The notes below the pieces were generated by a model, which saw only the letters and a program-made list of their open reading frames with translations, had not been told where the DNA came from and made no database searches. From IMG/VR virus record IMGVR_UViG_3300021519_000010, positions 1 to 61,347 of that record: a stretch of 61,347 nt of DNA, one strand, 5' to 3'. Position 1 is the first letter of the stretch, and each line of letters starts with the position of its first letter. Of this stretch, positions 282-51,646 are shown piece after piece. The translations under genes were made by a program, and so were the position numbers. This stretch comes from a virus (Duplodnaviria; Caudoviricetes).

Positions 282-338
282 ATGAATCCAACCACATTTG
301 TGCAGCTGACTGAAGCCGGGCGGATGGCTGAAGGGTAA
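282..338 (+). pseudogene. Stranded capsid-targeting-like leader peptide MNPTTFVQLTE|AGRMAEG, out of frame with ORF 362
   Basis: Translated by eye; matches the leader consensus; stops after 18 aa. Confidence 0.5.
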
Positions 339-361
339 CCCGATCAAGTTCCTTAAGGGTT

Positions 362-1348
362 ATGCCAAGCGCAACCGTAAGTGACGGGACCATCGGACAC
401 CCCGGCAAAGAGGTGGTCAGGCGGGGGACGGCTGACAACACGGAACACGTTATCCTAACTGCTGACGGCAGGCACATTGCCACCGGCGGCGGAGATGACG
501 CTGGGTCTGCGAACATTCCAGCGCACTCGGAACACGAAAACGTGGAGGTTCATCACAACCATCCGGACAACAGCGGGTTCAGCTTCCAGGATGTGCAGGT
601 GTTTGCCAAATACCCACGCGTTAGCAAGGTTCACGCATACACACATGACGGCGTGGCGCACTCAATGGAGGTTGTGGGAGATCGAGACGCACTTTACCGC
701 CGGAGCCGGGAGTTGCAGTATGCGGTCAGCGACAAGGTGCACGAGTTCGCGTTGCGGTTTCACGGTCCGGTTTCAGATGCGGACCGACAGGAGTATGATG
801 CCTTCCGAATCGCCGAGACGCAAAGGGCTATCCTGCAATTGCAGAAGGAAGGACTAATTGCGTTGTCAACCGGTGTAATGGAGCGCACGATGAGACCAGC
901 CCGTTTCATGCAGCTGACTGAACGCGGTGTCAAGCTGTATCACTCGTCCGGAGAGGTGTTCCCGAACGGCAAGCCGGAGTTTGATGCCTTCTACGGTGGT
1001 GAGCAGTTCATCAAAGACTTCCCCAACGAGTTCGGCCAGCACCTTTACCAGATCACCCTTCCGGCCAGCGCTCGCGTACTGGACCTGAACGCCGGTTCGC
1101 CGGAGGCACGGCAGTTCAAGGCTGAGATGGCTCAGATAACGTGGCCGGATGATACGGAATTCGCCGAGATGTTGCTGGCTGGAGACCCCGAGGCCGAGAC
1201 CGACTTCTACGAAACGTGGACCGACAAGCACACGACCCTGCGCGTGATGCAGAAGCACCCGGAGTACGCCGCCGTACGATATCAGGATGAGTACGTGGTG
1301 CCAGCGTCAACCACCAGCAAGCTGGTTGGGAAGAAGCTGCGGAGGTAG
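362..1348 (+). CDS. Two-domain protein: JAB/MPN-like domain, internal leader (890), ADP-ribosyltransferase-like domain
   Basis: E...HNHP...FS.QD motif; MRPARFMQLTE| at 890; then LYHSS...FY...FG.HLY.I.L....VLDL. Confidence 0.5.
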   Translation: MPSATVSDGTIGHPGKEVVRRGTADNTEHVILTADGRHIATGGGDDAGSANIPAHSEHENVEVHHNHPDNSGFSFQDVQVFAKYPRVSKVHAYTHDGVAHSMEVVGDRDALYRRSRELQYAVSDKVHEFALRFHGPVSDADRQEYDAFRIAETQRAILQLQKEGLIALSTGVMERTMRPARFMQLTERGVKLYHSSGEVFPNGKPEFDAFYGGEQFIKDFPNEFGQHLYQITLPASARVLDLNAGSPEARQFKAEMAQITWPDDTEFAEMLLAGDPEAETDFYETWTDKHTTLRVMQKHPEYAAVRYQDEYVVPASTTSKLVGKKLRR

Positions 1349-1678
1349 TTACCGGAAACCGAACTCGTCACACATGGGAACTATCGGATTCCGCGCCCGA
1401 GCAGCCGTGAGTGCGGAGGTGGCGGCATCGAATTCTTCGTCAGATTCAACCCAGACCTGACTGTCACCTTGCTTGAGCATCTGCATCAGCGTGGCGCGAA
1501 TGTGCTCTCGGATTTCAAATTCCTTGGCACGCGCCTCGGCTTCCGGAACGTCGCCGGGCTTCGCGCGTTCGTCAAGCGCCGCCTCGATGGACGGGAAAAC
1601 GTCAATGACTCGGTCGAAGATAATGTCGGTGGCGTTATCAACGGCGCAGTGGGAGATGGTGGCAGGTAGGAACGCTCG
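1349..1678 (-). pseudogene. Open frame of 109 codons lacking a canonical start near its 5' end
   Basis: Protein-like translation (..DNATDIIFDRVIDVFPSIEAALDE..CDEFGFR*); in-frame TGA at 1679-1681 lies within a degenerate early-promoter copy. Confidence 0.35.
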
Positions 1679-1695
1679 TCAAGTGGGTGTTGCAG

Positions 1696-2298
1696 TTATT
1701 CTCGGCGTGCCGACCGCAAGTGCTTGTTGAATGCTTTGATCATCTGCACAACATCAGCCTCGCTCAGGTCGGCACCACGCTTGACGATCAAGCGACGACC
1801 CACAAACATATACGGGGTCGTACCTCGGACAGTGGGGCCGGAGCGCTTGTTGGACTCCAGATACGCACGCTGCGCCGCTATGTCGCGTACTCCGGATGCC
1901 CCAAACACCTGCTTGGCCTGATGGTTGGTGAGGTGGCGAATATCCGTATTGAGAGTGGACGGGCCGTCTGCATGCACCACTAGCACTTCAACGGTCCGGC
2001 CATACAGCGACTTTTGCGTTGAGTACGGCATGCGAGCCAGTGCGGCTTCGCCTGGGAGACCAGAAGGAATAGCCAGCTCGGGAAGCAGTTGTTTGCGGCC
2101 AATGCGTTCCAGCATGTGCAGCACCTCCATGCTGAGACGGGTGTCCGCTTCGTGGAGATCGTTAAGGACGAGCTGCCCATCATCCAGTTGCTGGACGAGG
2201 AGAGTGGCGGCATCATGAATGCACTTGATCCCCTGTGCCATTAGGCTGGTGATCTGCTGTGCGATGCTGGTGATGTTGGAGTCGAGCGATGGTGTCAT
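1696..2298 (-). CDS. Hypothetical protein
   Basis: ORF; start MTPSLDS follows a CA-rich leader. Confidence 0.6.
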   Translation of the reverse strand: MTPSLDSNITSIAQQITSLMAQGIKCIHDAATLLVQQLDDGQLVLNDLHEADTRLSMEVLHMLERIGRKQLLPELAIPSGLPGEAALARMPYSTQKSLYGRTVEVLVVHADGPSTLNTDIRHLTNHQAKQVFGASGVRDIAAQRAYLESNKRSGPTVRGTTPYMFVGRRLIVKRGADLSEADVVQMIKAFNKHLRSARRE

Positions 2299-3657: not shown

Positions 3658-3935
3658 GCTGGAAGTCCTTGGGTGTGAGCGTAGCCCGGCCCGGTTTTCA
3701 CCCCAAATAAAGTTAACAGACCGCCCTGACAGGTTATGCGTCCGTCGAAGTTCACACCGTCATTGCGAACCAAGTCCAGCCGCACATCATACCCGTCGAC
3801 TGTGAGGCTGCGGGAGGCAATAAACGGGCGAGTATATAGCATAATGGGGTGTGAATTAAGTGGGTCATCTACCTCCGTGCTGGAGTCCGTCACGCCCGGC
3901 AGCTACGAGCTGGTTACAACGGGGTGATCGTCTAG

Positions 3936-4160: not shown

Positions 4161-4184
4161 AATACAATTAAGAACGCCTCCGAC

Positions 4185-4982: not shown

Positions 4983-5050
4983 TTGGTTTGTTTTAAGTGC
5001 CTCAATGTGATGGGTGTGTTATAGCAGTCAACAAGGAATGCACATGTAGT

Positions 5051-13513: not shown

Positions 13514-14464
13514 ATGCTTTCACTTGCCGATATTCTCCTTAGTGGCGGGTCTCCCGTCCGCGCACGAACCTCCGCTCAGCCCGCGTGGCGTTCCCGGCTG
13601 GCCGAGGCCGTGCAGACGCGGCGTCCCATCCAGTTCTCGTTTGATGAGGCGCGGGTGCTCACCCGCATTCTGGAACAGTACGATGCCGACCCGTTCAAAG
13701 GCGGGCCAACCGACTTCATGCAGGCAGACGACATGGCCATCATTGGTCTGAAGACACTGGAGGCCGGAGGCTCGGATGGATCATCCACGCATGAAGAACC
13801 GGCGCAGCCTGCCGCCAGAGCTGCTTCTGGCCTAATCAGCGTGGAGAACGCCATTGTCGCCCCGTCTGCCACACCCGGTGGACACGAGGACATTCCGGCC
13901 TCCGTGATTTCAACCCTTGCCGTTTTGCACTCGGACGACGAGGCCAGGCCCGTTACCGAGATTCCCGACGCCAAGCCGCCGGTGGCACGCGTTCCAGCGC
14001 AGCATCGCGCCCCGGCTCCGCCAGCAGGCGAAGGGCCAATTCCGAGTGGGCTTCCGAAACCCGGCCTCTCCCCCGAAGACGAGGCTGAAGTGATTGAAAG
14101 CCTGCGGCTGGACCGGGAGCAGGCCATCCAGCGTACCCTGATGGAGCGCATGGGCGGTGGTAGTGCACGTGTCAACCTGCAGGAGGCTGCCGCATTCGCC
14201 GAGTCCACATCGGACGGCGTACCACACCCAGTGGACTTTGTGCGCAAGTTTCGCAAGAGCAAACAAAAGCTGACAGAGGGGAACCATTCGCAACGCGGAG
14301 GTGGAGCCACGCCGCCTCGTCGCCGCCCCACCGGAGGCTCCAATGTGCTTGACGTGCCCGGAGCCAGCACGACGCCCGCCAACACGGCGGCATTGGTGCA
14401 GAGGGCACAGGAAAGAGCCGGAGCGCTTGGGTTTGATGATCCGGAAGATCGCCCACGCTTCTAA
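13514..14464 (+). CDS. Low-complexity putative head-internal protein with many E| sites
   Basis: MLSLADILL start; RLAE|A, LQE|A, FAE|S, KLTE|G; TACGTATT upstream. Confidence 0.55.
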   Translation: MLSLADILLSGGSPVRARTSAQPAWRSRLAEAVQTRRPIQFSFDEARVLTRILEQYDADPFKGGPTDFMQADDMAIIGLKTLEAGGSDGSSTHEEPAQPAARAASGLISVENAIVAPSATPGGHEDIPASVISTLAVLHSDDEARPVTEIPDAKPPVARVPAQHRAPAPPAGEGPIPSGLPKPGLSPEDEAEVIESLRLDREQAIQRTLMERMGGGSARVNLQEAAAFAESTSDGVPHPVDFVRKFRKSKQKLTEGNHSQRGGGATPPRRRPTGGSNVLDVPGASTTPANTAALVQRAQERAGALGFDDPEDRPRF

Positions 14465-15579
14465 TGACGCCGTCACGCTTCATCAGTCTGGTTAGTATTG
14501 ATGAGGCCGTTATGCCTCCAAGGTCGGCGCTCGATGCACAGTACGCATCGTCCAATGCCGAGCACGGGTGGCAAACTGCCACGGTGTGGATGGATCGAGG
14601 CGGAATCCTGCGCGTTGATAGTACGACGCCAAACGGACCAGATCGACAAACAGGTTTGCGCGCAAGCGTGAATTTATGGCCGGAGACAAAGCAGATCGAT
14701 CCCGGTTATCGAAATCGACCCACCGGCAACACTGTCTCACCGGCCATGCACCAACTCGTGGCTGCGCTTTTGAAGGCCGGATGGGTTGACGCTACATGGA
14801 GCATTCGTGGTGAAACCATCAGTTATTACCTTGGCGGCACGTACTCTTATCGAGCCAACCCGCTTGCGCCGAGCTTAGCAGACTGGCATAAGGTTATCCG
14901 ATTTGATGCCACCACCATAAACCTTCAGTTGTTTCACGGCACGTCCAGTCTTGAACTTCCGGCAATTCTGCAAAATGGCATGCGCTCGCTCGGGAGCCGT
15001 GGTGGAACTGGGCAAGCCAGTGTGAACACTCGTTTACGTGCTGACTGGAACAAGGAACACACCTATTTGGCTACGAAACTGGAAGGAGCCTGGGGATATG
15101 CAAAGCACCGGGCGCTAGATATGTGGCGCAAGACCAACCGGAGTGGTTACGAATACGGGCAGTACCGGGAATGGGAACAGTGGGAGGTGCAGCCCGTGGT
15201 TCTTATTGTTACCGTACCAGACATGTCGCGGTTGCGCGCTGATGATGACATCATCATCACGGCCATTAAGAAGCGAGCTGAGGCGCTCTGGGGAAAGATG
15301 TCGGCGGAGGCACGGGAGGATCAGAAGGCAATGATGCGGCAGTGGTTTCCGAAGCACGCGGGGTTTCAGATCAAGGAAAATGATATGTCAGCATGGTATT
15401 GGGTTATGACGGATGCTGGTATGCAGACAGTTATGGACTCAATGCCTATGGAAAGGCTGGCAGCTGCTTGGAAAGCATCGATTCGGCGCAACGATCAAGT
15501 AGCATACGCTGGAGTCATTCCGCCAAGTCATCTGAAGGTGATGGATCTTCGCGACGTTACCACAAAGCGTTCCGTCTGA
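14464..15579 (+). CDS. Leader-tagged ADP-ribosyltransferase-fold protein
   Basis: MTPSRFISLVSIDE|A; LFHGTS...ILQNG...TYLA...A.GYA...PVVL.V. Confidence 0.6.
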   Translation: MTPSRFISLVSIDEAVMPPRSALDAQYASSNAEHGWQTATVWMDRGGILRVDSTTPNGPDRQTGLRASVNLWPETKQIDPGYRNRPTGNTVSPAMHQLVAALLKAGWVDATWSIRGETISYYLGGTYSYRANPLAPSLADWHKVIRFDATTINLQLFHGTSSLELPAILQNGMRSLGSRGGTGQASVNTRLRADWNKEHTYLATKLEGAWGYAKHRALDMWRKTNRSGYEYGQYREWEQWEVQPVVLIVTVPDMSRLRADDDIIITAIKKRAEALWGKMSAEAREDQKAMMRQWFPKHAGFQIKENDMSAWYWVMTDAGMQTVMDSMPMERLAAAWKASIRRNDQVAYAGVIPPSHLKVMDLRDVTTKRSV

Positions 15580-15958: not shown

Positions 15959-16198
15959 ATGAACGCCAAGACCATCGAACGCCTCGCTGAGGAAGCCAAG
16001 AACCCGGACGAACTCCTCCGCAAGCTTTGCGAGGACATCAATCTGACCAACGGTCAGAAGGTGTACACCGTGCACGGCATGGGGCAATCGTCCGTCATTG
16101 GCACCTTCCAAGGCCTGACCAACGGCGGTATGGCCAAGGTGAAGAACCCAACCGGCACGTACACCGTCGCCGCGCACCTCGTCTTCCCCAAGCGCTAA
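15959..16198 (+). CDS. Small hypothetical protein
   Basis: Codon usage resembling the capsid gene; TACGTATT upstream. Confidence 0.65.
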   Translation: MNAKTIERLAEEAKNPDELLRKLCEDINLTNGQKVYTVHGMGQSSVIGTFQGLTNGGMAKVKNPTGTYTVAAHLVFPKR

Positions 16199-16201: not shown

Positions 16202-16510
16202 ATGGGCAAGACTCTGGTAGAAATGCTGCTCGAGGCTCCGATGGAGACGCACCCGTCCGCATTCGAGTCTGGTAAAGTATTCGTGATCATGGATACAGCT
16301 GATGGGCGGTACATTACGCGTGGCACCGGAACGGCCCAGCTGGTGAGAACCCTGCCACAGCCGGAGCGTGCGACATTGTACCCGGACTTGCATGGTGCAA
16401 TTACCGGAGCACGCATTGCACAGAACCGCGACGCAAACCTCGGCGAGCTTCTTATCTGCCCGGTACAACTACACGTCGGCAGTCCGGTAAAGTCGATTCA
16501 GCGGAAATAA
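16202..16510 (+). CDS. Hypothetical protein with type-2 leader
   Basis: MGKTLVEMLLE|A. Confidence 0.6.
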   Translation: MGKTLVEMLLEAPMETHPSAFESGKVFVIMDTADGRYITRGTGTAQLVRTLPQPERATLYPDLHGAITGARIAQNRDANLGELLICPVQLHVGSPVKSIQRK

Positions 16511-17050: not shown

Positions 17051-17806
17051 ATGAACCTTCTTCAAACCATCCGATCACTGGCTCCGCTGCTGGCATCAGT
17101 TGCGCAGGCAGAATATGATGCATGGGAGGTTGATGCGGGTGGCATGGACCCGGAAATTGGTGAGGGTGGAATTTGCGACCGCGTCGCCGACGCCATGGGT
17201 ACCGTTCTGGCGCAGCACGGTATCGACGTTACGGAGGGCGGGCAGGATGGCGACGACCACGCCTTCTTGTACGCTTACAATGAGACTGAGGCCGTGGAAG
17301 TCGATATTCCGCCGGGCGTTTATGAAACCGGCAGTGGGTACAGCTGGAAGAAGCGCCTCGGCGTCACCATTGGTGCGGACGATGTGATGATCAATCCGGT
17401 TCGCCGCGAGGACATTCTAGGCGAGTCCGTCGACTCGACGGGCTTCAACATTGAAAGAGTTTTTCTTAATCGCATTGGGCCAATGGAGTTATATGTCGTG
17501 CGTGATCCGGAGTTTACCGGAAGCAAAATCGACATGGGTATGGCAGACCAGCATAACATCATTGGGTTTGTTCGGTTAATTCTCTGGAATAAGGGGCAAG
17601 TGGATGTAGATAAAATTTGGACCCATCCGGACTACCGGCGGAGAGGCATCGGCACCGCGCTCATGAATCGAGTACGTGCAGACCACCACAATATTGCCCT
17701 ACCAATTGTGACGCGGATGGGTGCACCGTTCTTTCGCAGCCTCGGAATGGTGAGTGAAGCCTTGACACCTACGCAGTTTATGCAGATGGTTGAGGCTAAT
17801 TGTTAG
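17051..17806 (+). CDS. Polyprotein: Cys-His-Asp domain, GNAT, stranded C-terminal leader
   Basis: GICD..DHAF..VDI; ILGE|S; PDYRRRGIGTALM; LTPTQFMQMVE|ANC*. Confidence 0.6.
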   Translation: MNLLQTIRSLAPLLASVAQAEYDAWEVDAGGMDPEIGEGGICDRVADAMGTVLAQHGIDVTEGGQDGDDHAFLYAYNETEAVEVDIPPGVYETGSGYSWKKRLGVTIGADDVMINPVRREDILGESVDSTGFNIERVFLNRIGPMELYVVRDPEFTGSKIDMGMADQHNIIGFVRLILWNKGQVDVDKIWTHPDYRRRGIGTALMNRVRADHHNIALPIVTRMGAPFFRSLGMVSEALTPTQFMQMVEANC

Positions 17807-17807: not shown

Positions 17808-18167
17808 ATGAGCAACCTTACCCCTGTTCCATTCGTTTATCGTGCCACCGTTACCGGCGTCCACGACGGAGACACGGTGACCATCACCATCGACCTCGGA
17901 TTCGACACCGCGCTGGTGGGCAAGGCCGTACGGCTTGCGGGCATCAACGCCCCGGAGCTGCGCACGCCAGCCGGTAAAGCCGCTCAACAGTGGCTTTGCA
18001 GCCGTCTGGTTGGCAAGGTCATCACACTGCAAAGCTTCAAGGACAAGACCGAGAAGTATGGTCGCATTCTCGGCGACATCTGGCTGGACGGCGTCCACAT
18101 CAACGAGGAAATTGTATCCGCCGGACATGCCGTGGTCTGGAATGGCAAGGGCGTTCGTCCTGTTTAA
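17808..18167 (+). CDS. Thermonuclease (SNase family)
   Basis: VHDGDTV, VRLAGINAPE, EKYGRILG. Confidence 0.9.
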   Translation: MSNLTPVPFVYRATVTGVHDGDTVTITIDLGFDTALVGKAVRLAGINAPELRTPAGKAAQQWLCSRLVGKVITLQSFKDKTEKYGRILGDIWLDGVHINEEIVSAGHAVVWNGKGVRPV

Positions 18168-18172: not shown

Positions 18173-18625
18173 ATGACGCCCGCCCGATTCATGGTGCTGC
18201 TCGAGAAAGAATCCAATCAAATGCTTTCGACTTTAGTCGCTCAAGATCAGAGCGAACGAAAATCCTATCAGGCTTTCGTAAAGACTAAAGCGAATGGCGA
18301 TTGGCAGAAGGGTGCTCAGATGTATGCTAAGTTGCGTAATAGAGACGCCGATGACATCTTTGGCGAGAAGGATCGTTTGCAAAAATTCATTGGAGTGAAG
18401 TTTGATTTCGAAACATTCACTCCAGATGACTGGAACAATTACTGGCTCCTGGCTCAGCACTGCGATCATGATAGGCAATTTCAACAAAAAGCCTTGAATG
18501 CGATTGTCAAATACATAGGCAAAGAAAGTGGAGAATTCAAGTATCTGAGCGATCGAATCAGTTGCGGATTGAATGGAACACAAAAATACGGAACACAGGA
18601 TATCTGTGATAAAGACTCTCGATGA
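18173..18625 (+). CDS. Leader-tagged DUF6624-like protein, AT-rich body
   Basis: MTPARFMVLLE|K; WLLAQHCD..FQ..AL..YLSDR..QKYGTQ. Confidence 0.6.
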   Translation: MTPARFMVLLEKESNQMLSTLVAQDQSERKSYQAFVKTKANGDWQKGAQMYAKLRNRDADDIFGEKDRLQKFIGVKFDFETFTPDDWNNYWLLAQHCDHDRQFQQKALNAIVKYIGKESGEFKYLSDRISCGLNGTQKYGTQDICDKDSR

Positions 18626-22665: not shown

Positions 22666-23114
22666 CGCCGTCCACATTCATGCGGCTGATAGAAGCGGAG
22701 GATCATGGTGACGTAAACATTCGTACATTGTTTGAAGCAGTAAAACCTCCAGAGGGTGATGTTCGTCTCGACGCAGACGAGCCTGCACCCTCAATGTTTT
22801 GGCTGTCTCCCACAGGAGAAGTGATCCATGTAAAAGGTGGTCATGATCACAATTCCAAAGCGCAGGAAATGCTAGGAGACGGAACCTCCTATGCAGATGC
22901 AGTAGATAAACTAAAGTCTAAAGGTTACGCAAGAGGGAGGCGGGAGGGAGATACAACTTATTACGAACTAGCCAGTGGCGCACACCGTGACTTGAGTTCT
23001 TCTCAGCGCCGCACAATGGAAAATATGGCGGCAGATCACTCTCTTCGCGTTACGAGAGACAAACAACAATGGGGTGAAAAAGATTTGTTTGATTATCGTA
23101 GGCAAAAACAATGA
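22662..23114 (+). CDS. Leader-tagged hypothetical protein, AT-rich body
   Basis: MTPSTFMRLIE|A; FWLSPTGE...H. Confidence 0.65.
   Translation: MTPSTFMRLIEAEDHGDVNIRTLFEAVKPPEGDVRLDADEPAPSMFWLSPTGEVIHVKGGHDHNSKAQEMLGDGTSYADAVDKLKSKGYARGRREGDTTYYELASGAHRDLSSSQRRTMENMAADHSLRVTRDKQQWGEKDLFDYRRQKQ
22668..22702 (+). repeat. 35-bp exact repeat encoding the leader (second copy 23117-23151)
   Basis: CCGTCCACATTCATGCGGCTGATAGAAGCGGAGGA. Confidence 0.9.
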
Positions 23115-23491
23115 TACCGTCCACATTCATGCGGCTGATAGAAGCGGAGGAAACGTACTCTTATGACTACGTGTGCAATCACATAGTCAGGTGTGGCACA
23201 GATGGCGCTCACGACGAAGACGAGGATGATGATGACGTAAGCATTCCCGGCGTGGGCCGAGACTGTCAGTTTGTGCTGCGGTACGTCCCTGTATCGTCTC
23301 TCCGTTGCGACCTGTCAGACACGGCAGACGGTCGCATGCTGGTGCAGAAGTATAAGGGGTGGTTGGATCATGGAAATGCTCCAGCGGTCGTTCTCGGTCA
23401 TGATAACGTTGTGATGGACGGACGGCATCGTGTACTAGCTGCGCGCGCTGCGGGGAAGTCACATATTAACGCTTTCGTTCCAATGAAATGA
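23111..23491 (+). CDS. Leader-tagged ParB/Srx-like protein
   Basis: MIPSTFMRLIE|A; PAVV...MDGRHRVLAA. Confidence 0.7.
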   Translation: MIPSTFMRLIEAEETYSYDYVCNHIVRCGTDGAHDEDEDDDDVSIPGVGRDCQFVLRYVPVSSLRCDLSDTADGRMLVQKYKGWLDHGNAPAVVLGHDNVVMDGRHRVLAARAAGKSHINAFVPMK

Positions 23492-24213
23492 GTGTCTCAC
23501 CACAATTTGCATCAACGCGCATTAGCCAACCTGGCACTCCACTGGAGCATTTTGCGCCGTGGTCTCCGCCGGTTTACGGAGTATCCGTGGAGAAGCTGTA
23601 CACGGTGGTGCAGTCTGATATCGGGCGACCGGACGCCATTGCCGAGCGCGTGTGGGAGCGGTCTGACCTCTGGTGGGTAATTTTGCACTACAACGGCGTT
23701 GCAGACGCGTTTACCCTGCAACCTGGGGACCGCCTGCTCATTCCGTCATTAAGTGTGGTGGAGGATACCTTGCTCCAGATGCAAACGCGTGGCCCGTCTA
23801 TCGGGTTGGACATGGACGACACAGACGTTCCGTTGTTGCCGCTGCAGGTGCCTAGCCCGGTGCAGCCGCTGACGCTCCTCCTACCTGCTCCGCTGGATGA
23901 ACGCGTGCCGGTTTCCATGTCCGGCGTCCTCACGTTTACGGTACCAGCGGCGGAGGCAGCCCATTATCAGCTGCAGGTCAGCCTCGACCCGGCGTTTGAT
24001 ACCATTTACCTGAGCCGTACGACCATGATTTCTGCTTCCGGATGGGAGTACTTGGGCAGTGCGGTGTGGACAGCGTTCCCGTCCGGAGCCGGTGGGATTA
24101 CTGCCGGGCAAACACAGGTGCGCCTCACTATTTCCGACCTCGGCCTGCCGCGCGCATACGTGCGATGGCGCGCGTGGTTGGCAGAACTCGATCAACCATG
24201 GCAAATTCTCTAA
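23488..24213 (+). CDS. Baseplate wedge gp53/LysM-like protein
   Basis: GRPDAIA..W..SDLWWVILHYNG...L.IP. Confidence 0.75.
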   Translation: MSVSPQFASTRISQPGTPLEHFAPWSPPVYGVSVEKLYTVVQSDIGRPDAIAERVWERSDLWWVILHYNGVADAFTLQPGDRLLIPSLSVVEDTLLQMQTRGPSIGLDMDDTDVPLLPLQVPSPVQPLTLLLPAPLDERVPVSMSGVLTFTVPAAEAAHYQLQVSLDPAFDTIYLSRTTMISASGWEYLGSAVWTAFPSGAGGITAGQTQVRLTISDLGLPRAYVRWRAWLAELDQPWQIL

Positions 24214-24581
24214 CACCACTGACATTCATTGATCTGCTGGAAGCGCGCCTTACGCTTCTCCCGTGGAACGTTATGAGCGCGGACGCGAAACAATACCCGG
24301 ACTGGAAGGACGCTGCAGCATGCACTGCCTGCCGCAAATGGCTGGAGCAGCGCGGTGTTCACCGTCTGCCACTCTCAATGCAGCGAGATGCGCGTAATAA
24401 GCTGGTAATCACGCGCAGTCAATCAGCAGGAGTGCGGGCCACATACTTTCGGCGATATCGTGATGGCGAGTGGGTTCCTAAAGATCATTTCGATGCGCCA
24501 AGCATAGAAGCAGCAGCGCTCCACGCATCTGAAAATGGGTACGAGTTTCTGTGTTCCGAACCGAACAGTATGCACTTATGA
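24198..24581 (+). CDS. Leader-tagged hypothetical protein
   Basis: MANS-LTPLTFIDLLE|A. Confidence 0.55.
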   Translation: MANSLTPLTFIDLLEARLTLLPWNVMSADAKQYPDWKDAAACTACRKWLEQRGVHRLPLSMQRDARNKLVITRSQSAGVRATYFRRYRDGEWVPKDHFDAPSIEAAALHASENGYEFLCSEPNSMHL

Positions 24582-37313: not shown

Positions 37314-37598
37314 ATGAGACCATACAACTTCATCAGCATAACGGAGGGCGATGACTTCAACCCGAGACCCGGAGAATCCGTTCGTGTAACCTCGACTGGC
37401 AGCGTGTCCGATGAGTCATGGTGGCGTGTGGATGGCACACTGAGTCGCGCACGTGTTGCTGGCACGGTAACGCTGCATCATGGCGGTGGTATGGAGTATG
37501 CGTCGGATGACGGCTCTGTTCTGGATCAAGAGGCATACGACACACTGGTCGATATCATGGGTGATGCTGACCCGTCATGGCACGGGCAGGAGGAATAG
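37314..37598 (+). CDS. Leader-tagged hypothetical protein
   Basis: MRPYNFISITE|G. Confidence 0.65.
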   Translation: MRPYNFISITEGDDFNPRPGESVRVTSTGSVSDESWWRVDGTLSRARVAGTVTLHHGGGMEYASDDGSVLDQEAYDTLVDIMGDADPSWHGQEE

Positions 37599-38461: not shown

Positions 38462-38824
38462 ATGAAACTGAAACCGAACACCATGAAACCGAACACCATG
38501 AAACCGAACACGCTGGCCGAACGGTTGTTGCAATCGTGCGGTCGTCGAGTCACCGAAACCAAACGTGGTCGCAATCCCGGTGTTCCGGCAGACATGGATG
38601 TTTGCACGTTCAATGCAGATACAGATTGCTTTGAAGACGGCAACGGAACCGCCGACATTATGGGGTTTATGCTGCGCACGAAGCAGGGTGATCCAATTAT
38701 CGATGAAGAAGATGAAGGTGAATATGGGTATGGCATTTACGAGCAGCTGGCCGTCGCACAGGCAAAACTGCCTGCTCATCCGGGCGCAGATATCGTCGCC
38801 ATTGACGATATCAGGAAGTGGTAG
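38462..38824 (+). CDS. Hypothetical protein with type-2 leader and tandem-duplicated start
   Basis: (MKPNT)n-LAERLL..VTE|T; 15-bp tandem at 38469-38511. Confidence 0.6.
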   Translation: MKLKPNTMKPNTMKPNTLAERLLQSCGRRVTETKRGRNPGVPADMDVCTFNADTDCFEDGNGTADIMGFMLRTKQGDPIIDEEDEGEYGYGIYEQLAVAQAKLPAHPGADIVAIDDIRKW

Positions 38825-38832: not shown

Positions 38833-39696
38833 ATGAACCCATTTCAATTCATCTCCCTCATTGATCCGGATGCCACACGCGTGGAGGAGGCGTTCATGTA
38901 CGCCGTCATCTCCGCTCCGGACTTTGAAACGCTGCTGGAGCAGTATCCGGAGCGTGCCGTGGAGGCCCGTCGTCTGTATGAAAGCGTTCAGGCGGCTCAA
39001 CGTAGCGTCTCCCGCCTGCAGGCCAGCGTTCGCCGCCAGTGCCCGCCAGAGCTGCACCGGTTTCTGACTGAGGCTGCCGTCATCTCCGACCGCGCCCGCA
39101 AGAACTGCACCCCGCAGCTCATTGAATGCATAGTACTTGCCGGAGTCGAAGCTACCCGGTTGACCGAGTCCATGCAGATTAGTGCTTACGACGACCGGAT
39201 GGCCCGTGCAGCATGTGCCAGGTTGCATGAAGAGCTGGCCGTGGATGCTGAAGACCAGTTGAAGATGATTGGCAAGGCCAAGGGTGGAGCCACTCATGGC
39301 GGTGATACGCTCGGAGCCGAGCTGGCCAAGGAGCATGACACTTTTGTTCGGGCACTCGAGAAGGAGTTCAAGTTTAAGGCTCACCACTGGGAACCGGTGC
39401 GCGAAGGCGTGATGGTTTTCCTCGATCAGGAAGCCGTGGACGCCTTGACGCGTGGCCTAACCTACAATGCCGTCTTGCAGCGCATCACCGGGGAGCTCGG
39501 GTACCTGATGGTTCAGCGCGGAGGAGCTCCGGATGACCTCGGCGGATTCGGTGAGTCACTTAGCAAGTGGATGTTCATCAAGTGTCCGCATGAGCTGGAG
39601 GACACCAACGACGCCAAGGCCTCTGCCAAGATTGGCAAGGATCGGGAGAAGGCGGCACAGAAGCTCCTCAAGGAAATCGAAAAACTTACTGACTAA
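38833..39696 (+). CDS. Leader-variant protein rich in E| sites (putative prohead core/internal protein)
   Basis: MNPFQFISLID; LYE|S, FLTE|A, RLTE|S, PVRE|G. Confidence 0.6.
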   Translation: MNPFQFISLIDPDATRVEEAFMYAVISAPDFETLLEQYPERAVEARRLYESVQAAQRSVSRLQASVRRQCPPELHRFLTEAAVISDRARKNCTPQLIECIVLAGVEATRLTESMQISAYDDRMARAACARLHEELAVDAEDQLKMIGKAKGGATHGGDTLGAELAKEHDTFVRALEKEFKFKAHHWEPVREGVMVFLDQEAVDALTRGLTYNAVLQRITGELGYLMVQRGGAPDDLGGFGESLSKWMFIKCPHELEDTNDAKASAKIGKDREKAAQKLLKEIEKLTD

Positions 39697-40106
39697 TGGC
39701 TGACAACGTTCACATTCGAAAGGGTAACGGGTTCTTTTACGCGGTACCAACACAGCAGACTCACAAAACTGTGGCTCGTGCAGGTTCGCACGCCACACTC
39801 CGCCGCAAGTTGATTCAGGCTGGACATGTTATCATTCCAGAGCCAGAGCCAGACACGATGGCAGAGGCCATGACGCCCACCACATTTACTACGTTAACTG
39901 AAACCGGTATCTGGCCCGACAGCCCGACCGGCACCACGCTGCGGTCCGACCTGTACCAAAAAGCATGGACGCTGGCAAAGGCACAACCGGACTTCAATGC
40001 CTTCTGCACCATGATGGCATCACAGCTTGACGTGCGCTATCACAACCTCGACTCGGAAATTCAGCGCCAGTTGCGTGATATGTTTCAAGACGCCCGACGC
40101 CAATGA
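39696..40106 (+). CDS. Two-module protein with internal leader at 39870
   Basis: MAE|A-MTPTTFTTLTE|T. Confidence 0.6.
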   Translation: MADNVHIRKGNGFFYAVPTQQTHKTVARAGSHATLRRKLIQAGHVIIPEPEPDTMAEAMTPTTFTTLTETGIWPDSPTGTTLRSDLYQKAWTLAKAQPDFNAFCTMMASQLDVRYHNLDSEIQRQLRDMFQDARRQ

Positions 40107-40408
40107 ACCCACGCCGATTCACATCGCTAACCGAAGCGGACCAATCTGTGCGGTTTGACTGCGACGCTCGCGCTGAGGTGTGGGTGACCATGGGAGACTT
40201 GGAAGATGACGGAGCTATTCAGAAGCTAAAGGCGTCTGCCTTGCCCGTAGAGGCCAAGATTATCGTTGCCAAGCGCCGTGCACTGGAAATGGCTCGACAC
40301 GAGCTGGAGAATGTGCATGGAGTGACCATTACGGCAGACCTGAGCTTGTCCAACATTAACGTGGATCGGGTCGACTGGGTGGCGCTGGTCAGCCCATACG
40401 AGGACTAA
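40103..40408 (+). CDS. Leader-tagged hypothetical protein
   Basis: MNPRRFTSLTE|A. Confidence 0.65.
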   Translation: MNPRRFTSLTEADQSVRFDCDARAEVWVTMGDLEDDGAIQKLKASALPVEAKIIVAKRRALEMARHELENVHGVTITADLSLSNINVDRVDWVALVSPYED

Positions 40409-41549: not shown

Positions 41550-42722
41550 TTACAACCACTTGACCATGTGAGCGCTATATCGACCATCTGGCATACCTTC
41601 GCTTTCCATCTCAAATCCAAGATGCGTCAGCAGTTTTGCTGCCACCGGATTAATCACCCAGTTGCGACAGCGTACCGGCAGGTCACCACCGCCTTCCGCC
41701 TTGGCTTCCTTAAGCATCGCCTGTATCAATTGCAGTCCGAGCAACCCGCCTTGATATTGTGGCAGAATAGCAATGTCGAAGGTGTAATCCAGAAACGGTT
41801 CATCGGGTTCGCCGTTGTCCGGGTCACCGTGGCCGTTGGAGAAGGTGGAATATACGGCTCCAACCACCTTCTCGCCAAACCGTGCCTTCTGGTCTGCAAC
41901 CAGTGCAACAAAGCTCAGCTTGCGGTTCCACATCACCCGCAGTCCGCAGGCCTTGAAGACTTCCTCGGCCTGCGCGTACACATCGCTATCATCCAACCCC
42001 ATGGAGTTCTCCGCATCTTCATCATCGGAGTAATGCTCGTCATCTCCGGTGAACCGCTGAATGCGGATGCCTGCGTCCTCGCAGAGTGCAATAAAGGCAG
42101 CTGGCTTCATAGATTCCTCGGTCCGCTCGTCATACCAGATAACGTCTGCCGGAATGGTGCTCATCTTGAGAAACCATGCCGTGCCTCTAGCCCTGTGCTG
42201 CCCCTCTATGAGCCAGAATTCCTTCATGTCATACGTGCCAACCACCACGCATTCAAACCACCCTTCATCCTGCTTGATGGTGCGCGCCAGCTGTTCGATA
42301 TATCGTGCTTCCCCCTCGTATCTGTCTCCTGCCGGACTACGCTGAATGTCAAGCGCCCGTAACGGTAGGAACTGCTTCCGCTTGATTGTAAAGTTTGCTG
42401 TCTCATTGGCCTGTGCGATCTGCACCAGCTCCTCATGTGGCGTTGAACGGATGGTACATGATGCCCACGTCCACTTTGGCTTGCGGCTGTACGCGAGGCT
42501 CGGTCTGCCGACCTTCCAGCAGGTTTTGAGCTTGTAAACTGGCATAGCAGCGGCGAAGGCGGCGTTCTTTTCCGACCCTTGCACTCCAAACAGGGAACCA
42601 TGATCGTGATCCGACTGCTCCAGCCGCCGGAAGATAAAGTCACGAGCCTCCTGCTCCGTTGTAAACTGGCGACGGGAGAGGTACTTCGACCAGTGGGCGA
42701 TGTCTTTCTGGCTTAGCGTCAC
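41550..42722 (-). CDS. Polyprotein: ParB-like domain, internal leader (42110), GNAT
   Basis: LIEGQHRARG; TEE|S-MKPAAFIALCE|D; FDIAILPQYQGGLLG.QLI..L..LGF. Confidence 0.65.
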   Translation of the reverse strand: MTLSQKDIAHWSKYLSRRQFTTEQEARDFIFRRLEQSDHDHGSLFGVQGSEKNAAFAAAMPVYKLKTCWKVGRPSLAYSRKPKWTWASCTIRSTPHEELVQIAQANETANFTIKRKQFLPLRALDIQRSPAGDRYEGEARYIEQLARTIKQDEGWFECVVVGTYDMKEFWLIEGQHRARGTAWFLKMSTIPADVIWYDERTEESMKPAAFIALCEDAGIRIQRFTGDDEHYSDDEDAENSMGLDDSDVYAQAEEVFKACGLRVMWNRKLSFVALVADQKARFGEKVVGAVYSTFSNGHGDPDNGEPDEPFLDYTFDIAILPQYQGGLLGLQLIQAMLKEAKAEGGGDLPVRCRNWVINPVAAKLLTHLGFEMESEGMPDGRYSAHMVKWL

Positions 42723-43597: not shown

Positions 43598-44140
43598 ATG
43601 AATCCGCCGTACCAGCTCACCGACACTGCGTTTCTCCGTAGCGCCTCATTTGCGGCCACTCGATGGCAGATTAGCGGAGTAAACGGTGGCCTGGTTGGAG
43701 CAAAGGTGCAGGTTTTGGTGACGAACACAGGTGGGGTCACCACATCCTTCAAGTTCCAGACCGCGCCGCAGCCGCTGGACTCAGCAGTAACCGAGGCTCC
43801 GGCGCTGGACAATTTGCTGGAGTTAGCCATCCCCAGCTCCGGCGCGGACCCAAGTGCAGTGGTGTCCACGGAAACGTTGGGTGGGTTCAATAGCACGTTC
43901 ACCACAATCACCACCTTCTTGAACACGGTTGCTAATACAGCAGGCGATATTACCATGACGCCTGGAGCCCGGATGCTGATCAGTTTCAAAGCCGGAGCAT
44001 TCGTGCAACTGGTACCAGTATCACCAACCAGCGTTCCAACCAGCGTGGGTCCGGGTATCCTCCGGTTGGAAGCATCCTGTAACCTGCCAATTGCCTGTGT
44101 TAGCCACGACCACCAACGGACGGCCATCTCACTTCGCTAA
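43598..44140 (+). CDS. Putative virion protein
   Basis: Thr/Ser/Gly-rich; TAGTTATT upstream. Confidence 0.5.
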   Translation: MNPPYQLTDTAFLRSASFAATRWQISGVNGGLVGAKVQVLVTNTGGVTTSFKFQTAPQPLDSAVTEAPALDNLLELAIPSSGADPSAVVSTETLGGFNSTFTTITTFLNTVANTAGDITMTPGARMLISFKAGAFVQLVPVSPTSVPTSVGPGILRLEASCNLPIACVSHDHQRTAISLR

Positions 44141-44547
44141 TGAACCCATCACGCTTTCTCAGCATGATTGAAGATGCCCCCGCCCGTGCCCACGCATGGA
44201 ACGACATGCCGGAGTATGCGCGCCGGGAGGCAGTGCAGCACAACCCCGAATTCCTGAAATACGTGCACCTGTCGTGGGAACGCCTGCCGCCGGTTATCAA
44301 GTCAGGGCTTTCTCACCTCGGCGAATCCGAATCGTGGCAGGAGTACTCGGTTTGTGCAACCCCGGATCGCGGTAATGACGGGTTCTGGCATGTGGCCGCA
44401 ACCGGCAAAGTATCTGCACGACAAACTTTCTTACAAAGCCCGGATGGGCGCGGCGCAAAAATTCACTCTGTGCAGCGGGTTGAGGCTGACGATGTCCACC
44501 TCTGCACAAAGGTTGGTGACGTTGTATTTGGTAGCACTGCACTATGA
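44140..44547 (+). CDS. Leader-tagged hypothetical protein
   Basis: MNPSRFLSMIE|D; HLGE|S. Confidence 0.65.
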   Translation: MNPSRFLSMIEDAPARAHAWNDMPEYARREAVQHNPEFLKYVHLSWERLPPVIKSGLSHLGESESWQEYSVCATPDRGNDGFWHVAATGKVSARQTFLQSPDGRGAKIHSVQRVEADDVHLCTKVGDVVFGSTAL

Positions 44548-45064: not shown

Positions 45065-45628
45065 ATGAAGAAGAATACCATAAACATGAAGAAGAATATC
45101 ACACTCGCAGACCGGTTGCTGACCGAAGCAGACACTGATGCCAGGATACGAACGCACCGAGGACGTCTGTTTGCACAGCAGTCAGCAAATGACGCTGCTA
45201 ACATCATACAGCATTTGCTGGCTGCACTGCAGGCACAGGACCTAGATCAGGCGATCAAGCTGGCTGACCAGGTTGCGGGAAAGTTGCGCCAGGCGCAGCG
45301 TACTGCACGCGCCGACGCCTCAGGGCCAGATGACCCGGAGTCCATTACGGGCAGGCTGAAGGTTGCTGCCATGTCTTACCTACAGCGTCAGCAGTGGCAT
45401 GCGGGCGACCGTCGAGAGTTTCGGCGACCATCGCATCGCGATTTGCTGGAATTGCGCGCGGCAAAGGACGTTCGTGCATGGGGTGACGCCATCTATGGCT
45501 TGGCGCAGCAGGTCGGTGAACGTAAAGGGTGGGGTGATGAAGGGGTTGGTGACTTGCACTCAGAGATGATGACCGCCATTGCGGCTGAGGCTGGTATTGA
45601 CTGGGACACGGTAGATAACCAATTGTGA
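45065..45628 (+). CDS. Hypothetical protein with type-2 leader and tandem-duplicated start
   Basis: MKKNTINMKKNITLADRLLTE|A; 21-bp tandem at 45055-45096. Confidence 0.65.
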   Translation: MKKNTINMKKNITLADRLLTEADTDARIRTHRGRLFAQQSANDAANIIQHLLAALQAQDLDQAIKLADQVAGKLRQAQRTARADASGPDDPESITGRLKVAAMSYLQRQQWHAGDRREFRRPSHRDLLELRAAKDVRAWGDAIYGLAQQVGERKGWGDEGVGDLHSEMMTAIAAEAGIDWDTVDNQL

Positions 45629-45864: not shown

Positions 45865-45865
45865 C

Positions 45866-48423: not shown

Positions 48424-48430
48424 TATTCTT

Positions 48431-49177: not shown

Positions 49178-49182
49178 GTTAT

Positions 49183-49416
49183 ATGACACCCAAAGCATTT
49201 CACGCACTCATTGAGAACCCGGATGACCTGCTCGAGTTGATCGAGTTGGCCAAGGGTGTGCAGGAGCGCAATGATCCAGCGGAAATTGCGTCATTTCTTG
49301 AGCACAACCGCGCCGGGTCGATACAGGAGTATATCGCCATGTTGGATCAAAGGCGGACCGCCGCCCAGCGATCGGTAGCGCTGGATCGGGCGGCACTCGG
49401 TGGCGATACCTACTAG
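49183..49416 (+). CDS. Leader-tagged small protein
   Basis: MTPKAFHALIE|N; leader DNA near-identical to 48440. Confidence 0.65.
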   Translation: MTPKAFHALIENPDDLLELIELAKGVQERNDPAEIASFLEHNRAGSIQEYIAMLDQRRTAAQRSVALDRAALGGDTY

Positions 49417-49421
49417 CCCTT

Positions 49422-49787
49422 ATGCACCAGATCGCCCGCCCGCTGATTGACCCACGGCACCAGCTTATTCGGTTCGTGCAGGGTCGTCCGCAGCTGCGCC
49501 TTCCGAACCCCGGCCCGCGCGTGGCCGCTGACACCATTGATGTTCCGGAGATGCATGTGTTGCTGGAGCGTATCGGAGCCGGAACGGCAGCCATCCGCAT
49601 CGTTTACCCAGACAAGCAGTCCGAGCGTCTTACCTGCGACCGTAACATCCAGCTTGAACTAACGCGTCGTGGCCTGCCTCCGGAGAAAATCGAACGTGCT
49701 CTCGATTACACTTGGAACTTTGACCGGGTGCTGGTCGCATGCGACCGAGAACCAGCTCCGTTAGCCCTCCGAGTGGACTCAATCTGA
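49422..49787 (+). CDS. Hypothetical protein
   Basis: ORF. Confidence 0.55.
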   Translation: MHQIARPLIDPRHQLIRFVQGRPQLRLPNPGPRVAADTIDVPEMHVLLERIGAGTAAIRIVYPDKQSERLTCDRNIQLELTRRGLPPEKIERALDYTWNFDRVLVACDREPAPLALRVDSI

Positions 49788-49804
49788 CGGGGTTGAATTA
49801 AGAG

Positions 49805-49845
49805 TCGGATTGAGATCGGATTGAAATCGGATTGAGATCGGATTG
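49805..49845. repeat. 11-bp tandem repeat (TCGGATTGARA) x3.7, intergenic
   Basis: Seen directly upstream of the protease gene. Confidence 0.85.
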
Positions 49846-49936
49846 CGGTTGGTAACGAGGTACGATTGAAGACAAGCCGTTAGGTTCAACTTGTATCTTT
49901 GGGAAGGTGCAATCATGAGAGCCGTAATTCTCCTGT

Positions 49937-51646
49937 ATGCCTTCTCTGCCTTTTCGCCCTCTTTTTGAGACCATGGAGTTCCGTCCGGTCGGAAAGCCCG
50001 TGTTGGTGGAGGATGCGTCCACGCCCGGACGTCAGGTGACCCGGCAGAGCGGCACATTCCAGAACTTCTTGAAGCAGAACGCTAACAAGCGCACCTATCC
50101 CAAGGGAATCTGGGAAGGTCTGTTCAAGGACGGCAGCGACTTCATGAACCGGATTAAGAACCGGGCGATGATCGGTCTTCTGGAGCATCCGGAAGACGGC
50201 GTAACGCGATTGGATCGCATTCCGAGCCACCTCATTGTCGAGGTTCATTTCGCAACCCCGCAGGAGATCAATGAAACTCGCAACGATAAGCACCCAATTG
50301 ATGAGGGTGACATTGTTGGTACGCTCGAAGTTCTCGGCACCTCTACTGGCAAGGAACTGCTGGCACTGATCGAGGCCGGTGTGCTTTTCGGCGTTTCCAG
50401 CCGTGGCGGCGGATCGCTCCGCGAGGATGGTGATGGTTACATCGTCGAAAACGATTTTGAATGCGAGACCTGGGACGTTGTGGCGGTCCCGTCCGTGACC
50501 CGTGCCACGCCGCATGTGACCACCCGCACCACCGAGGCGGCTCCCGCGTCGGCCAAGCCGGTTGTGGTGGAGGCCTCGCCCCATCAGCCGCTACCCGCAC
50601 CGGCAGTCGTACCTGTACCGGCCCCCGCCGCAGCACCAGTTTCCGCTTCTCCGACTCCAAAACTCACTGAATCCACAAAACCATCCATGAAGACCATCCG
50701 CGATCTCCAAATCGAACTCACGCAACTCCGGGCGACTCCCCTCAAGGGGCTGAAGCCCACTGACCGCGCCAACATCATCGAGGCCGTCCTCCAGATGCAG
50801 GTGAACCTCGGCAAAATCCTCGTTGAGGACGCCTCACAGAAGCCCCTGGCGGACCGCCTCGGCAAGCACCTCAATGAATTCATGGACGATCTCGACGAGC
50901 CCGAAACGGTCGACGCGACTCCGGCAGCTCCTGCGGCTGGTGAAGGCGATGAAGAGGGTGGCGAAGGAAATGAAACGATTCAGGCGGCTGCCGACAAGCT
51001 CCGCGAACTCGCTCCGGAAGATGAGGCAGTCACCGAGCTGGCCGACGAGCTCGAAGCCCTCTCCGACGAGTGCGCCCCGGTGGACGATGACTCCGCCCCG
51101 GTCGAAGGTGAACCGGTCTCCGAGACCATCAAGCGCCTTCGCAAGAAGCTCGCCACTGAGTCCGCGAAGCGTACCCGCGTCGAGTCCACTCTCAGCAAGC
51201 TCAGCAAGGCCTCCGCGAAGCTCGTCGAGCGCCACAATGCGGTGCTCGCCCGCGTCAAGACCCTCGAGGAATCGGGTGGCAAGGACGGCGAGGCCATGAA
51301 GGCAGCTCGCGAACTCGCCACGCGTTACAACCGCGACATGATCGAATTCGCCAGCCTGCAGCTGCAGCGCACTCGCCCGGCACTGGCCGAAGCCAACGCC
51401 CCGGCCCTCAATGCCTGCAAGACGTGGAATGCGTACAGCGCGCTGGTCGAGCGCCTCATCAAGGCCGAGCCCAAGAAGGTCCGCAAGGTCCGCAAACCTT
51501 TCACTGAGGCGGCTCCGGCTCCCGGCACCAAGCCGAAGTATGAGTCGCGGTTCATTCGCGCGGCTGTCAAGCCCGCGCTGACCGAAGCCGTGGCCAACCA
51601 TCCGTCACTCCGCATGGCTACCCGCCACCGCCCGGTCGCGGCCTAA
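49937..51646 (+). CDS. Prohead protease (T4 gp21-like) fused to a scaffold/core-like C-terminal region
   Basis: N.N.R.Y, LEHP, GVSSRGGGS, WDVVAVPS; acidic coiled-coil tail with many TE|A sites; precedes the MCP gene. Confidence 0.9.
   Translation: MPSLPFRPLFETMEFRPVGKPVLVEDASTPGRQVTRQSGTFQNFLKQNANKRTYPKGIWEGLFKDGSDFMNRIKNRAMIGLLEHPEDGVTRLDRIPSHLIVEVHFATPQEINETRNDKHPIDEGDIVGTLEVLGTSTGKELLALIEAGVLFGVSSRGGGSLREDGDGYIVENDFECETWDVVAVPSVTRATPHVTTRTTEAAPASAKPVVVEASPHQPLPAPAVVPVPAPAAAPVSASPTPKLTESTKPSMKTIRDLQIELTQLRATPLKGLKPTDRANIIEAVLQMQVNLGKILVEDASQKPLADRLGKHLNEFMDDLDEPETVDATPAAPAAGEGDEEGGEGNETIQAAADKLRELAPEDEAVTELADELEALSDECAPVDDDSAPVEGEPVSETIKRLRKKLATESAKRTRVESTLSKLSKASAKLVERHNAVLARVKTLEESGGKDGEAMKAARELATRYNRDMIEFASLQLQRTRPALAEANAPALNACKTWNAYSALVERLIKAEPKKVRKVRKPFTEAAPAPGTKPKYESRFIRAAVKPALTEAVANHPSLRMATRHRPVAA

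Follow-up and report, generated by a model that had tools for sequence, protein, structure and literature searches.

Phage-injected proteins act before any phage gene is expressed, and the internal proteins (Ips) of phage T4 are non-essential. For T-even phages, it is established that unrelated injected proteins share just an N-terminal packaging leader, which is removed by the head protease (PMC3012670, PMC12373910). At least ten Ips are reported across these phages, three of them in T4, where injected proteins serve as first-line inhibitors of host defence and Ip1-3 each block a distinct GmrSD enzyme (PMC12373910). The T4 leader, the capsid-targeting sequence (CTS), is carried by IPI, IPII, IPIII and Alt and cut by gp21. 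The T4 record shows it as MKTYQEFIAE|A in ipII and ipIII, which is how the first-pass annotation of the DNA studied here had quoted it, and the leader of ipI ends ...ITE|A. The first 10 residues of IPIII are reported to be sufficient for incorporation, with residues 4 and 7 serving targeting and residues 8 and 10 processing; an Asp at position 10 still permits targeting but prevents processing, and gp21 itself carries LIE-9 close to its N-terminus (PMC9026906). T4 propeptides end in a cut motif of the [LMI]-x-E type (PMC9026906, PMC5694885). Here, we describe an 11-residue leader, M-x-P-x-x-F-x-x-[LMI]-x-E, which occurs 20 times in the IMG/VR virus record IMGVR_UViG_3300021519_000010. The window is this entire record, 61,347 bp long and linear, with a CheckV completeness estimate of 23%. 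The leader is likely a lineage-specific dialect of the T4 CTS, in which M-x-P-x-x-F would target the protein and [LMI]-x-E| would be where the protease cuts.

As in T4, a short N-terminal peptide ending in hydrophobic-x-Glu ([L/I]-x-E in T4) is common to unrelated, fast-evolving proteins, and it is accompanied by an S77 protease with a similar N-terminal peptide and by a Gp23-type capsid protein. One of the tagged proteins, called cargos in the following, is an ADP-ribosyltransferase (ART), as is T4 Alt, although of the ART-PolyVal family and not of the Alt/VIP2 type (PMC5512222). The differences from the T-even phages are the sequence and register of the tag, its 20 copies in 61 kb of a single genome, the presence of three copies at internal joints of longer open reading frames (ORFs), and a lineage far from cultured phages. 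Measured against the three Ips of T4 and the at least ten reported across all T-even phages (PMC12373910), the earlier description of this set as much expanded is fair. The giant phages phiKZ, 201phi2-1 and SPN3US are also large and encode a gp21-like protease; many of their head-internal proteins are cut after Glu, and conserved N-termini are found on diverged paralogues (PMC5694885). However, their propeptides mostly exceed 100 residues and have the cut motif A/S/G-x-E, compared to 11 residues and [LMI]-x-E here, and the parts of PMC5694885 available to us report no common short tag on unrelated proteins such as the one found in the window. The ART, ParB-like, acetyltransferase and nuclease domains of this locus resemble the repertoire of polyvalent proteins (Iyer et al. 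2017, PMC5512222), whose effector domains are predicted to travel with the DNA, some of them protease-processed; ART and ParB-like domains are among the proteins predicted to be packaged (PMC5512222). While polyvalent proteins join 2-15 domains per polypeptide (PMC5512222), the genes described here are mostly separate, small and tagged, and just 362-1348, 39696-40106 and 41550-42722 join two parts, through the tag. A literature search found no description of the motif or of the lineage, although the motif string itself was not searched.

At all 20 coordinates at which the first-pass annotation had placed the motif, it translates as written. A six-frame search with the regular expression.P..F..[LMIV].[ED] gave 20 matches in the window, 19 of them on the + strand. 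Nineteen of these matches are listed leaders, and the remaining one at 51953, in the wrong frame inside the capsid gene, is due to chance; the variant at 14464 is matched by a looser expression only. The same search gave a mean of 2.57 matches (maximum 7) in 200 mononucleotide shuffles and of 2.66 (maximum 10) in 200 residue shuffles. With a preceding Met, 17 matches were observed against a shuffle mean of 0.035 (maximum 1), so the proposed comparison with shuffled controls comes out clearly in favour of the motif. When the N-terminal 14 residues behind every ATG opening at least 45 codons (908 in all) were clustered blindly, a 17-member family was recovered, the next largest cluster having three members. 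A position-specific scoring matrix of the leader returned 20 matches at or above 18.5 bits and none between 12 and 18.5 bits, compared to a mean of 1.0 at or above 12 bits in shuffles; as it was trained on 19 leaders, it is circular for those 19. Among these 19 leaders, Met1 occurs in 17, Pro3 and Phe6 in all, L, M or I at position 9 in all, and position 11 is Glu in 18 and Asp in one. Position 2 is T, N, R, K or I, position 7 mostly M, I or L, and position 10 I, T, V, L or C, while the 14464 variant ends in I-D-E. The sequence behind the Glu had been described as unrelated between genes, and no pair of mature parts reached E<0.01 by blastp (best 0.012) among the 18 leader ORFs of at least 40 amino acids (aa), the protease included.

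The leaders tag about one fifth of the roughly 90 ORFs picked by a crude gene caller. The earlier claim of about 20 genes with an N-terminal leader stands for 15 copies, which lie at, or at most four codons from, the plausible start of ORFs of 77-371 aa. It does not hold for the copies at 890, 39870 and 42110 (minus strand), which are located inside longer coding ORFs, or for the orphans at 282 and 17762. The genes and leaders are as follows.

282..338 (+): orphan leader MNPTTFVQLTE in an ORF of 18 aa, with 7 codons between leader and stop; the ORF after it, 362-1348, uses the -1 frame
362..1348 (+): 328-aa ORF, coding throughout, with internal leader MRPARFMQLTE at 890-922 (residue 177); no Pfam or PHROG match
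14464..15579 (+): leader variant MTPSRFISLVSIDE (three residues inserted); cargo, 371 aa
16515..17048 (+): leader MRPRAFMGMVE; ADP-ribosyltransferase (ART-PolyVal), domain from residue 13
17051..17806 (+): GNAT acetyltransferase ORF whose last 14 codons are the leader LTPTQFMQMVE-ANC before the stop (17762-17806, TTG)
18173..18625 (+): leader MTPARFMVLLE; orphan cargo, 150 aa
22662..23114 (+): leader MTPSTFMRLIE; orphan cargo, 150 aa; ATGA overlap with the stop before it
23111..23491 (+): leader MIPSTFMRLIE; orphan cargo, 126 aa
24198..24581 (+): MANS-LTPLTFIDLLE, a leader extended N-terminally by 4 residues; ORF, 127 aa
28952..29830 (+): leader MTPRAFLRLVE; orphan cargo, 292 aa, flanked by the genes for ribonucleotide reductase and tail sheath
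37314..37598 (+): leader MRPYNFISITE; cargo, 94 aa
38833..39696 (+): leader MNPFQFISLID (Asp at position 11, then Pro); cargo, 287 aa
39696..40106 (+): 136-aa ORF with internal leader MTPTTFTTLTE at 39870 (residue 59)
40103..40408 (+): leader MNPRRFTSLTE on a 101-aa cargo
41550..42722 (-): 390-aa ORF with a weak ParB_N-like half, internal leader MKPAAFIALCE (42110-42078, residue 205) and a GNAT-like half
44140..44547 (+): leader MNPSRFLSMIE; cargo, 135 aa
44544..45062 (+): leader MTPRRFIHLIE; cargo, 172 aa
45628..45864 (+): leader MTPTFFAVLTE; cargo, 78 aa
48440..49177 (+): leader MTPAAFHALIE; cargo, 245 aa
49183..49416 (+): leader MTPKAFHALIE; cargo, 77 aa

The first-pass annotation had taken 24210 as a gene start, which has to be corrected since this codon is CTA and the true ATG is located four codons upstream at 24198. 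The leaders at 22662 and 23111 are nearly identical in DNA, and their mature parts are unrelated. The ORFs around the three internal copies score as coding on both sides, and the occurrence of these copies at domain joints of longer ORFs suggests that the tag may also behave as an internal processing site. The SNase-domain gene 17808-18167 adjoins the orphan leader 17762-17806 in another frame. A further stub of this kind was observed in G002, one of the related IMG/VR records (G001, G002, G003 and G006) that were compared with the window contig (G000): an 18-codon orphan leader ORF (L015 1070-1126) with the next gene in the -1 frame, as at 282-338 in the window, its TGA overlapping the ATG of a SWIB/MDM2-domain gene (PF02201, E 4e-22). 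We read these stubs as remnants of cassette exchange; alternatively, they may be coupled upstream ORFs or frameshift sites. On reading the sequence, no slippery site was seen at the orphan leaders, where a programmed -1 frameshift is still conceivable. Two other candidates were rejected. A frameshift joining the leader at 45628 to a 605-aa ORF is contradicted by the arrangement as adjacent genes (stop 45864, ATG 45866), which is alike in G001, and stop-codon recoding after the leader at 282 by coding scores that drop beyond that stop. The ORFs 38462-38824 and 45065-45628 have N-termini that are repeated in a similar way, MKLKPNT-MKPNT-MKPNT-LAERLL... and MKKNTIN-MKKNIT-LADRLLTE..., and gave no family match.

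The mean pairwise identity of the leaders is 0.62, 0.63 and 0.37 at codon positions 1, 2 and 3, respectively, and 0.27-0.28 in the 30-nt flanks. In addition, Pro, Phe, Leu and Glu are each encoded by several (2-6) codons. Conservation of the first two codon positions, but not of the third or the flanks, indicates that selection on the leader acts at the peptide level. A possible exception is position 2: the base at +4 is A in all 20 copies compared to 33 of 59 other ATG genes, which suggests a constraint by the ATGA stop-start overlap or the initiation context instead of the peptide. Of the 15 N-terminal leaders, seven share 1 or 4 nt with the stop codon before them, and a Shine-Dalgarno (SD)-like box is present in only 5 of the 90 called genes. 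The leader has no hydrophobic span and no signal-peptide character, and 19 of the 20 copies share their strand with the structural genes.

Two of these structural genes are relevant to the proposed function of the leader.

49937..51646 (+): prohead protease, Peptidase_S77 domain at about residues 1-195 (PF03420, 35.6 bits, cut-off 27)
51705..53150 (+): Gp23-type major capsid protein (PF07068, E 1.6e-46, match from residue 77)

Beyond about residue 195, the protease ORF continues with a Pro/Ala-rich linker and an acidic, scaffold-like C-terminal part that contains many L/I/V-x-E sites. H84, S154 and S155 are invariant in an alignment of 17 proteases of the clade, and we take H84 and S154/S155 to be the catalytic residues of the S77 family. 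Translation confirms that the protease itself begins with MPSLPFRPLFE, here followed by |T and then ...PVLVE|D, with F6, L9 and E11 in the register of the leader. Most, but not all, of the 17 proteases open with a short peptide ending in L-x-E. The N-terminal segment of the capsid protein has a conserved L-A-E (residues 18-20) and an L-x-E followed by AKGWKEM (residues 31-33), and its putative cut sites QQLAE, HRLAE and SLTE lack the Pro3 and Phe6 of the leader. For protease residues 12-200 (alignment of 17 rows) paired with the leader protein at 49183 (77 aa), a complex prediction run without controls had a score of 0.00, which we take neither as support for binding nor as evidence against it. 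In a protein search, the capsid protein shared about 26-35% identity with cultured phages and nothing above about 35%, and a near-DNA search of GenBank phages gave no match to 49900-54100. A class II-type ribonucleotide reductase gene and a tail sheath gene are also located on the contig. Since the relatives in IMG/VR include records of 203-238 kb with completeness estimates of 89-96%, the source is probably a jumbo phage.

Some variation was observed around these genes. In G001, whose capsid protein is 98% identical, the protease starts with MSRISLTE|TFEF... compared to MPSLPFRPLFE|TMEF... in the window, and about 970 bp are added directly upstream of the protease (window 49792-50039, G001 23313-24283). 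The difference in spite of such high capsid identity suggests that the head protease's own leader is exchanged between close strains. An HNH endonuclease-like ORF (53188-54033; PHROG 2255, E 8e-11) follows directly after the major capsid gene.

Based on these observations and on the analogy to T4, the 11-residue module would be a short flexible propeptide with two jobs. The front half (Pro3, Phe6) would direct the tagged protein into the assembling prohead core. The back half ([LMI]9-x-Glu11) would allow the gp21-type protease to cut after the Glu and to free the mature protein inside the head, and the cargo, an ADP-ribosyltransferase, GNAT acetyltransferases and many fast-evolving orphans, would leave with the DNA at infection. 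Inside a longer ORF, the module would be a processing joint separating two cargos. Because each cassette begins with the same module, cassettes could easily be swapped, fused or beheaded. The earlier proposal of a distinct targeting code agrees with this in its sequence-level expectations, namely the S77 protease, the Gp23-type capsid protein, the [LMI]-x-E end, the register shared with the protease and the modularity, but the element is not purely N-terminal as had been assumed. An unlikely alternative is that the module is a processing site only, a propeptide removed by the protease, for example to maintain enzyme latency or to mark polyprotein joints, with incorporation depending on the mature parts or on other factors. 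The three internal copies, the [LMI]-x-E part that is common to the protease, the capsid protein and the leader dialects of other phages, and a fusion in G001 that keeps just F..L.E would all fit such a site. However, all 19 leaders have Pro3 and Phe6, but the capsid cut sites lack these residues, which are thus not needed for cutting as such; this argues that they may do something besides specifying cleavage. The equivalent N-terminal residues in T4 are reported as targeting determinants (PMC9026906), and 17 unrelated mature parts are unlikely each to bear an incorporation signal of their own.

The match of the 16515 cargo to ART-PolyVal (PF18760) has 32.3 bits compared to a cut-off of 31.2. 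In the AlphaFold model, the mean pLDDT (predicted local distance difference test) is 91.1, but only 59 for residues 1-10, and no secondary structure is present before residue 15. Among solved folds, the closest match is chain 9k3a_B of a cyanophage pre-ejectosome (E 5.7e-5, TM 0.53, query-normalised), followed by ART folds (6kyf, MbcT, PARPs) with weak E-values of 0.008-0.3. In a comparison with 25 ART relatives from a large protein set, homology starts at WYHGR, residue 16. Seventeen of these relatives have other short leaders with an [LIMV]-x-E site, often of exactly 10 residues, such as MIKLKSLLLE, MKFVFQILAE and the T4-like MKTFKQHLRE, whereas two lack a leader and the N-termini of the other six show no such site. 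The start of the ART domain at residue 13, the low pLDDT and lack of secondary structure of the tag in the model and the other leaders on homologues indicate that the tag is a modular appendage on the cargo. On an unrelated low-GC phage contig, an ART homologue and a neighbouring AAA_33-domain gene share MK..IK..LRE|N, while their mature parts are unrelated. These leader dialects on the ART family and its neighbours, MIKLKSLLLE, MK..IK..LRE and the T4-like MKTFKQHLRE, come from other uncultured phages (L064 2811-4338; L063 2263-3456; proteins P0003-P0026). The different leaders on the ART homologues suggest that each T4-type lineage may have its own tag on a shifting set of cargos. Directly adjoining the ART gene are the ORFs 15959-16198 (MNAKTIERLAE) and 16202-16510 (MGKTLVEMLLE), with a hydrophobic position 6 and L-x-E at 9-11 but without Pro3 and Phe6, which may be degenerate members of the leader family.

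Two GNAT-like domains are found among the other cargos, one above and one below the Pfam cut-off, the latter in the ORF 41550-42722. The G002 leader protein VNPFDFAQLLE... (L016 10590-11132) matches the 2H phosphoesterase family PF13563 (29.7 bits, cut-off 27) and, below threshold, Acb1, an inhibitor of the cyclic-oligonucleotide-based anti-phage signalling system (anti-CBASS; 24.4 bits, cut-off 27). An Atlas search gave weak, sub-threshold leads to ART-fold families only for the cargo at 14464 and no usable match for the one at 38833, and sequence searches of four cargos against the PDB gave nothing useful. Searching 20 window ORFs against PHROGs yielded just two weak matches of unknown function for the cargos, and the remaining cargos are orphans in the Pfam and PHROG searches.

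Another possibility, which we consider improbable, is that the module is an address or docking tag for a destination other than the head, such as a phage chaperone, the tail or baseplate, the membrane or secretion machinery, a host factor or a degradation signal. The destination of the proteins is deduced here, the cargo is acidic, and one tagged gene lies among early-type genes, all of which leaves room for such an address. Yet the tag terminates in the motif at which head proteases of this family cut, the N-terminus of the head protease is in register with it, and the tag lacks a hydrophobic span or signal-peptide character. Moreover, homologues of the ART cargo bear T4-like CTS leaders, and the best match to the fold of this cargo is an ejected virion protein.

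The leader genes were also compared among the related records. G001 (43 kb) has 11 leader copies, G002 (72% capsid identity, 53 kb) has five, namely MNPKDFSKLVE, MTPILFNQLLE, VNPFDFAQLLE, MSPTDFDQLLE and MSPEKFNTLIE, and G003 (65%, 65 kb) has three, all without the Pro. The residues of the leader are kept in the relatives, but not the bases. These counts, together with the control level seen in more distant records, indicate that the exact tag is young and lineage-specific and that its expansion is specific to G000 and G001. Homology between these two contigs breaks at four leader starts: 38829/38833, 44544, 45628 and 49183. At 44544, it resumes exactly at the leader start; the gene 45065-45628 is absent from G001, with the leader start at 45628 as the breakpoint; and at 48440, G001 holds a different leader gene (MNPTKFVTLTE, 142 aa). 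These breakpoints are consistent with the leader serving as a joint, but they are not proof since breakpoints at gene starts are common in phages. G001 also fuses the cargos of 39870 and 40103 in frame, at a joint that keeps ...NRFTSLTE|ADQ, so that Met-Asn-Pro is lost and F..L.E is retained.

In the ORF 39696-40106, the reading frame of the 58 residues upstream of the internal leader is maintained in G001, where the indels do not disrupt it. The half of 41550-42722 upstream of its internal leader differs from G001 by seven nucleotides, all of them synonymous, which indicates that this half is translated. Between G000 and G001, the codon changes amount to 82 non-synonymous and 53 synonymous in the cargo and to 69 and 130 in four long genes without a leader, namely those of the capsid and sheath proteins and two unnamed ORFs, in a crude count that includes recombined segments. 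The cargo thus appears to change faster at the protein level than these four genes. A 207-bp segment inside the ORF 24551-25801 (window 24785-24991) has a 94% identical counterpart in G001 (3677-3883), where it is inserted in the homologue of the 28952 cargo (335 aa compared to 292 aa in the window); this looks like domain-scale shuffling between accessory genes.

That the element acts at the DNA or RNA level, as a recombination joint or as a translation-initiation context with ATGA coupling, and that the peptide is a by-product, is highly improbable: the invariant A at +4, the stop overlaps together with the scarcity of SD-like boxes and the four breakpoints at leader starts would be accounted for, but the third codon positions are far less conserved than the first two, the key residues use 2-6 codons each, the flanks are at background identity, relatives keep residues and not bases, and breakpoints at gene starts are expected in phage mosaicism regardless of a leader.

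The promoters of the window were considered as well. Eight genes, most of them on the minus strand, have an extended -10-like box, TGCTA(A)nnT, whose first base lies exactly 15 nt (in one case 17 nt) ahead of the ATG:

6572 (-), 10125 (+), 30199 (-), 34333 (-), 41169 (-), 41526 (-), 54251 (-), 55083 (-): genes preceded by TGCTA(A)nnT

With this spacing, transcription would begin at the start codon or right beside it and result in leaderless mRNAs. None of these eight genes with the early-type box 15-17 nt before the ATG carries the 11-residue leader, in line with the first-pass annotation, which had seen the motif on no early-promoter gene. A single T4 late-promoter box TATAAATA is present in the window, away from the leader genes, and no promoter common to the leader genes was found in the window.

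Several points weigh against a head-loading tag derived from the same principle as the T4 CTS. Apart from Met1, an aromatic residue and x-E, the leader does not resemble the T4 CTS in sequence, and the spacing differs, with F6/L9/E11 in 11 residues here compared to Y4/F7/I8/E10 in 10 residues in T4. Five of the 20 copies are not N-terminal, and two of these are stubs that tag nothing. The T4 Ips are basic, whereas the cargo is mostly acidic, with a median isoelectric point of 5.2 for 17 mature parts. The leader ORF 41550-42722, on the minus strand, is located among genes that have early-type promoter boxes, and the matches to ParB_N, to GNAT in this ORF and to Acb1 are below the curated cut-offs of Pfam. 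In 10 more distant records, G006 among them, the DNA pattern M....F..[LMIV].E occurs at control level. Blind N-terminal clustering of G006, a 208-kb record estimated to be 94% complete, gave noise only, although a more sensitive search for dialects was not made. As these distant relatives lack the leader family, a general head-loading code must either change fast or be dispensable. Furthermore, Pro3 and Phe6 could be recognised by something other than the prohead core, and the conservation of position 2 may reflect a constraint on the nucleotides or on translation. For this uncultured phage, we infer targeting, cleavage, packaging and injection from sequence and from the analogy to T4.

A more far-reaching interpretation, possible but rather doubtful at present, is a high-capacity, programmable injection system, in which one label, recognised by the prohead core and then removed by the head protease, loads dozens of unrelated effectors into a jumbo capsid and also serves as the connector through which cassettes are swapped, fused and beheaded between strains. 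The 20 labels found in a quarter of the genome would then mark enzymes and inhibitors, some of them label-joined polyproteins that are cut inside the head. If this were true, each T4-type lineage would have its own label dialect, and the injected proteomes of uncultured phages could be read from sequence.

Injected proteins are hard to find because they have no sequence in common apart from the tag. If the leader described here is a head-loading tag, identifying the injected set of an uncultured jumbo phage becomes a sequence search, and about 17 candidate effectors, mostly of no known family, are named in 61 kb. The different leaders on ART homologues suggest that this approach extends to other T4-type lineages, for which a survey of dialects looks feasible. 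The internal copies suggest a polyprotein loading route that is not described for T4. In addition, the tag could serve the packaging of foreign proteins, as the T4 CTS does.

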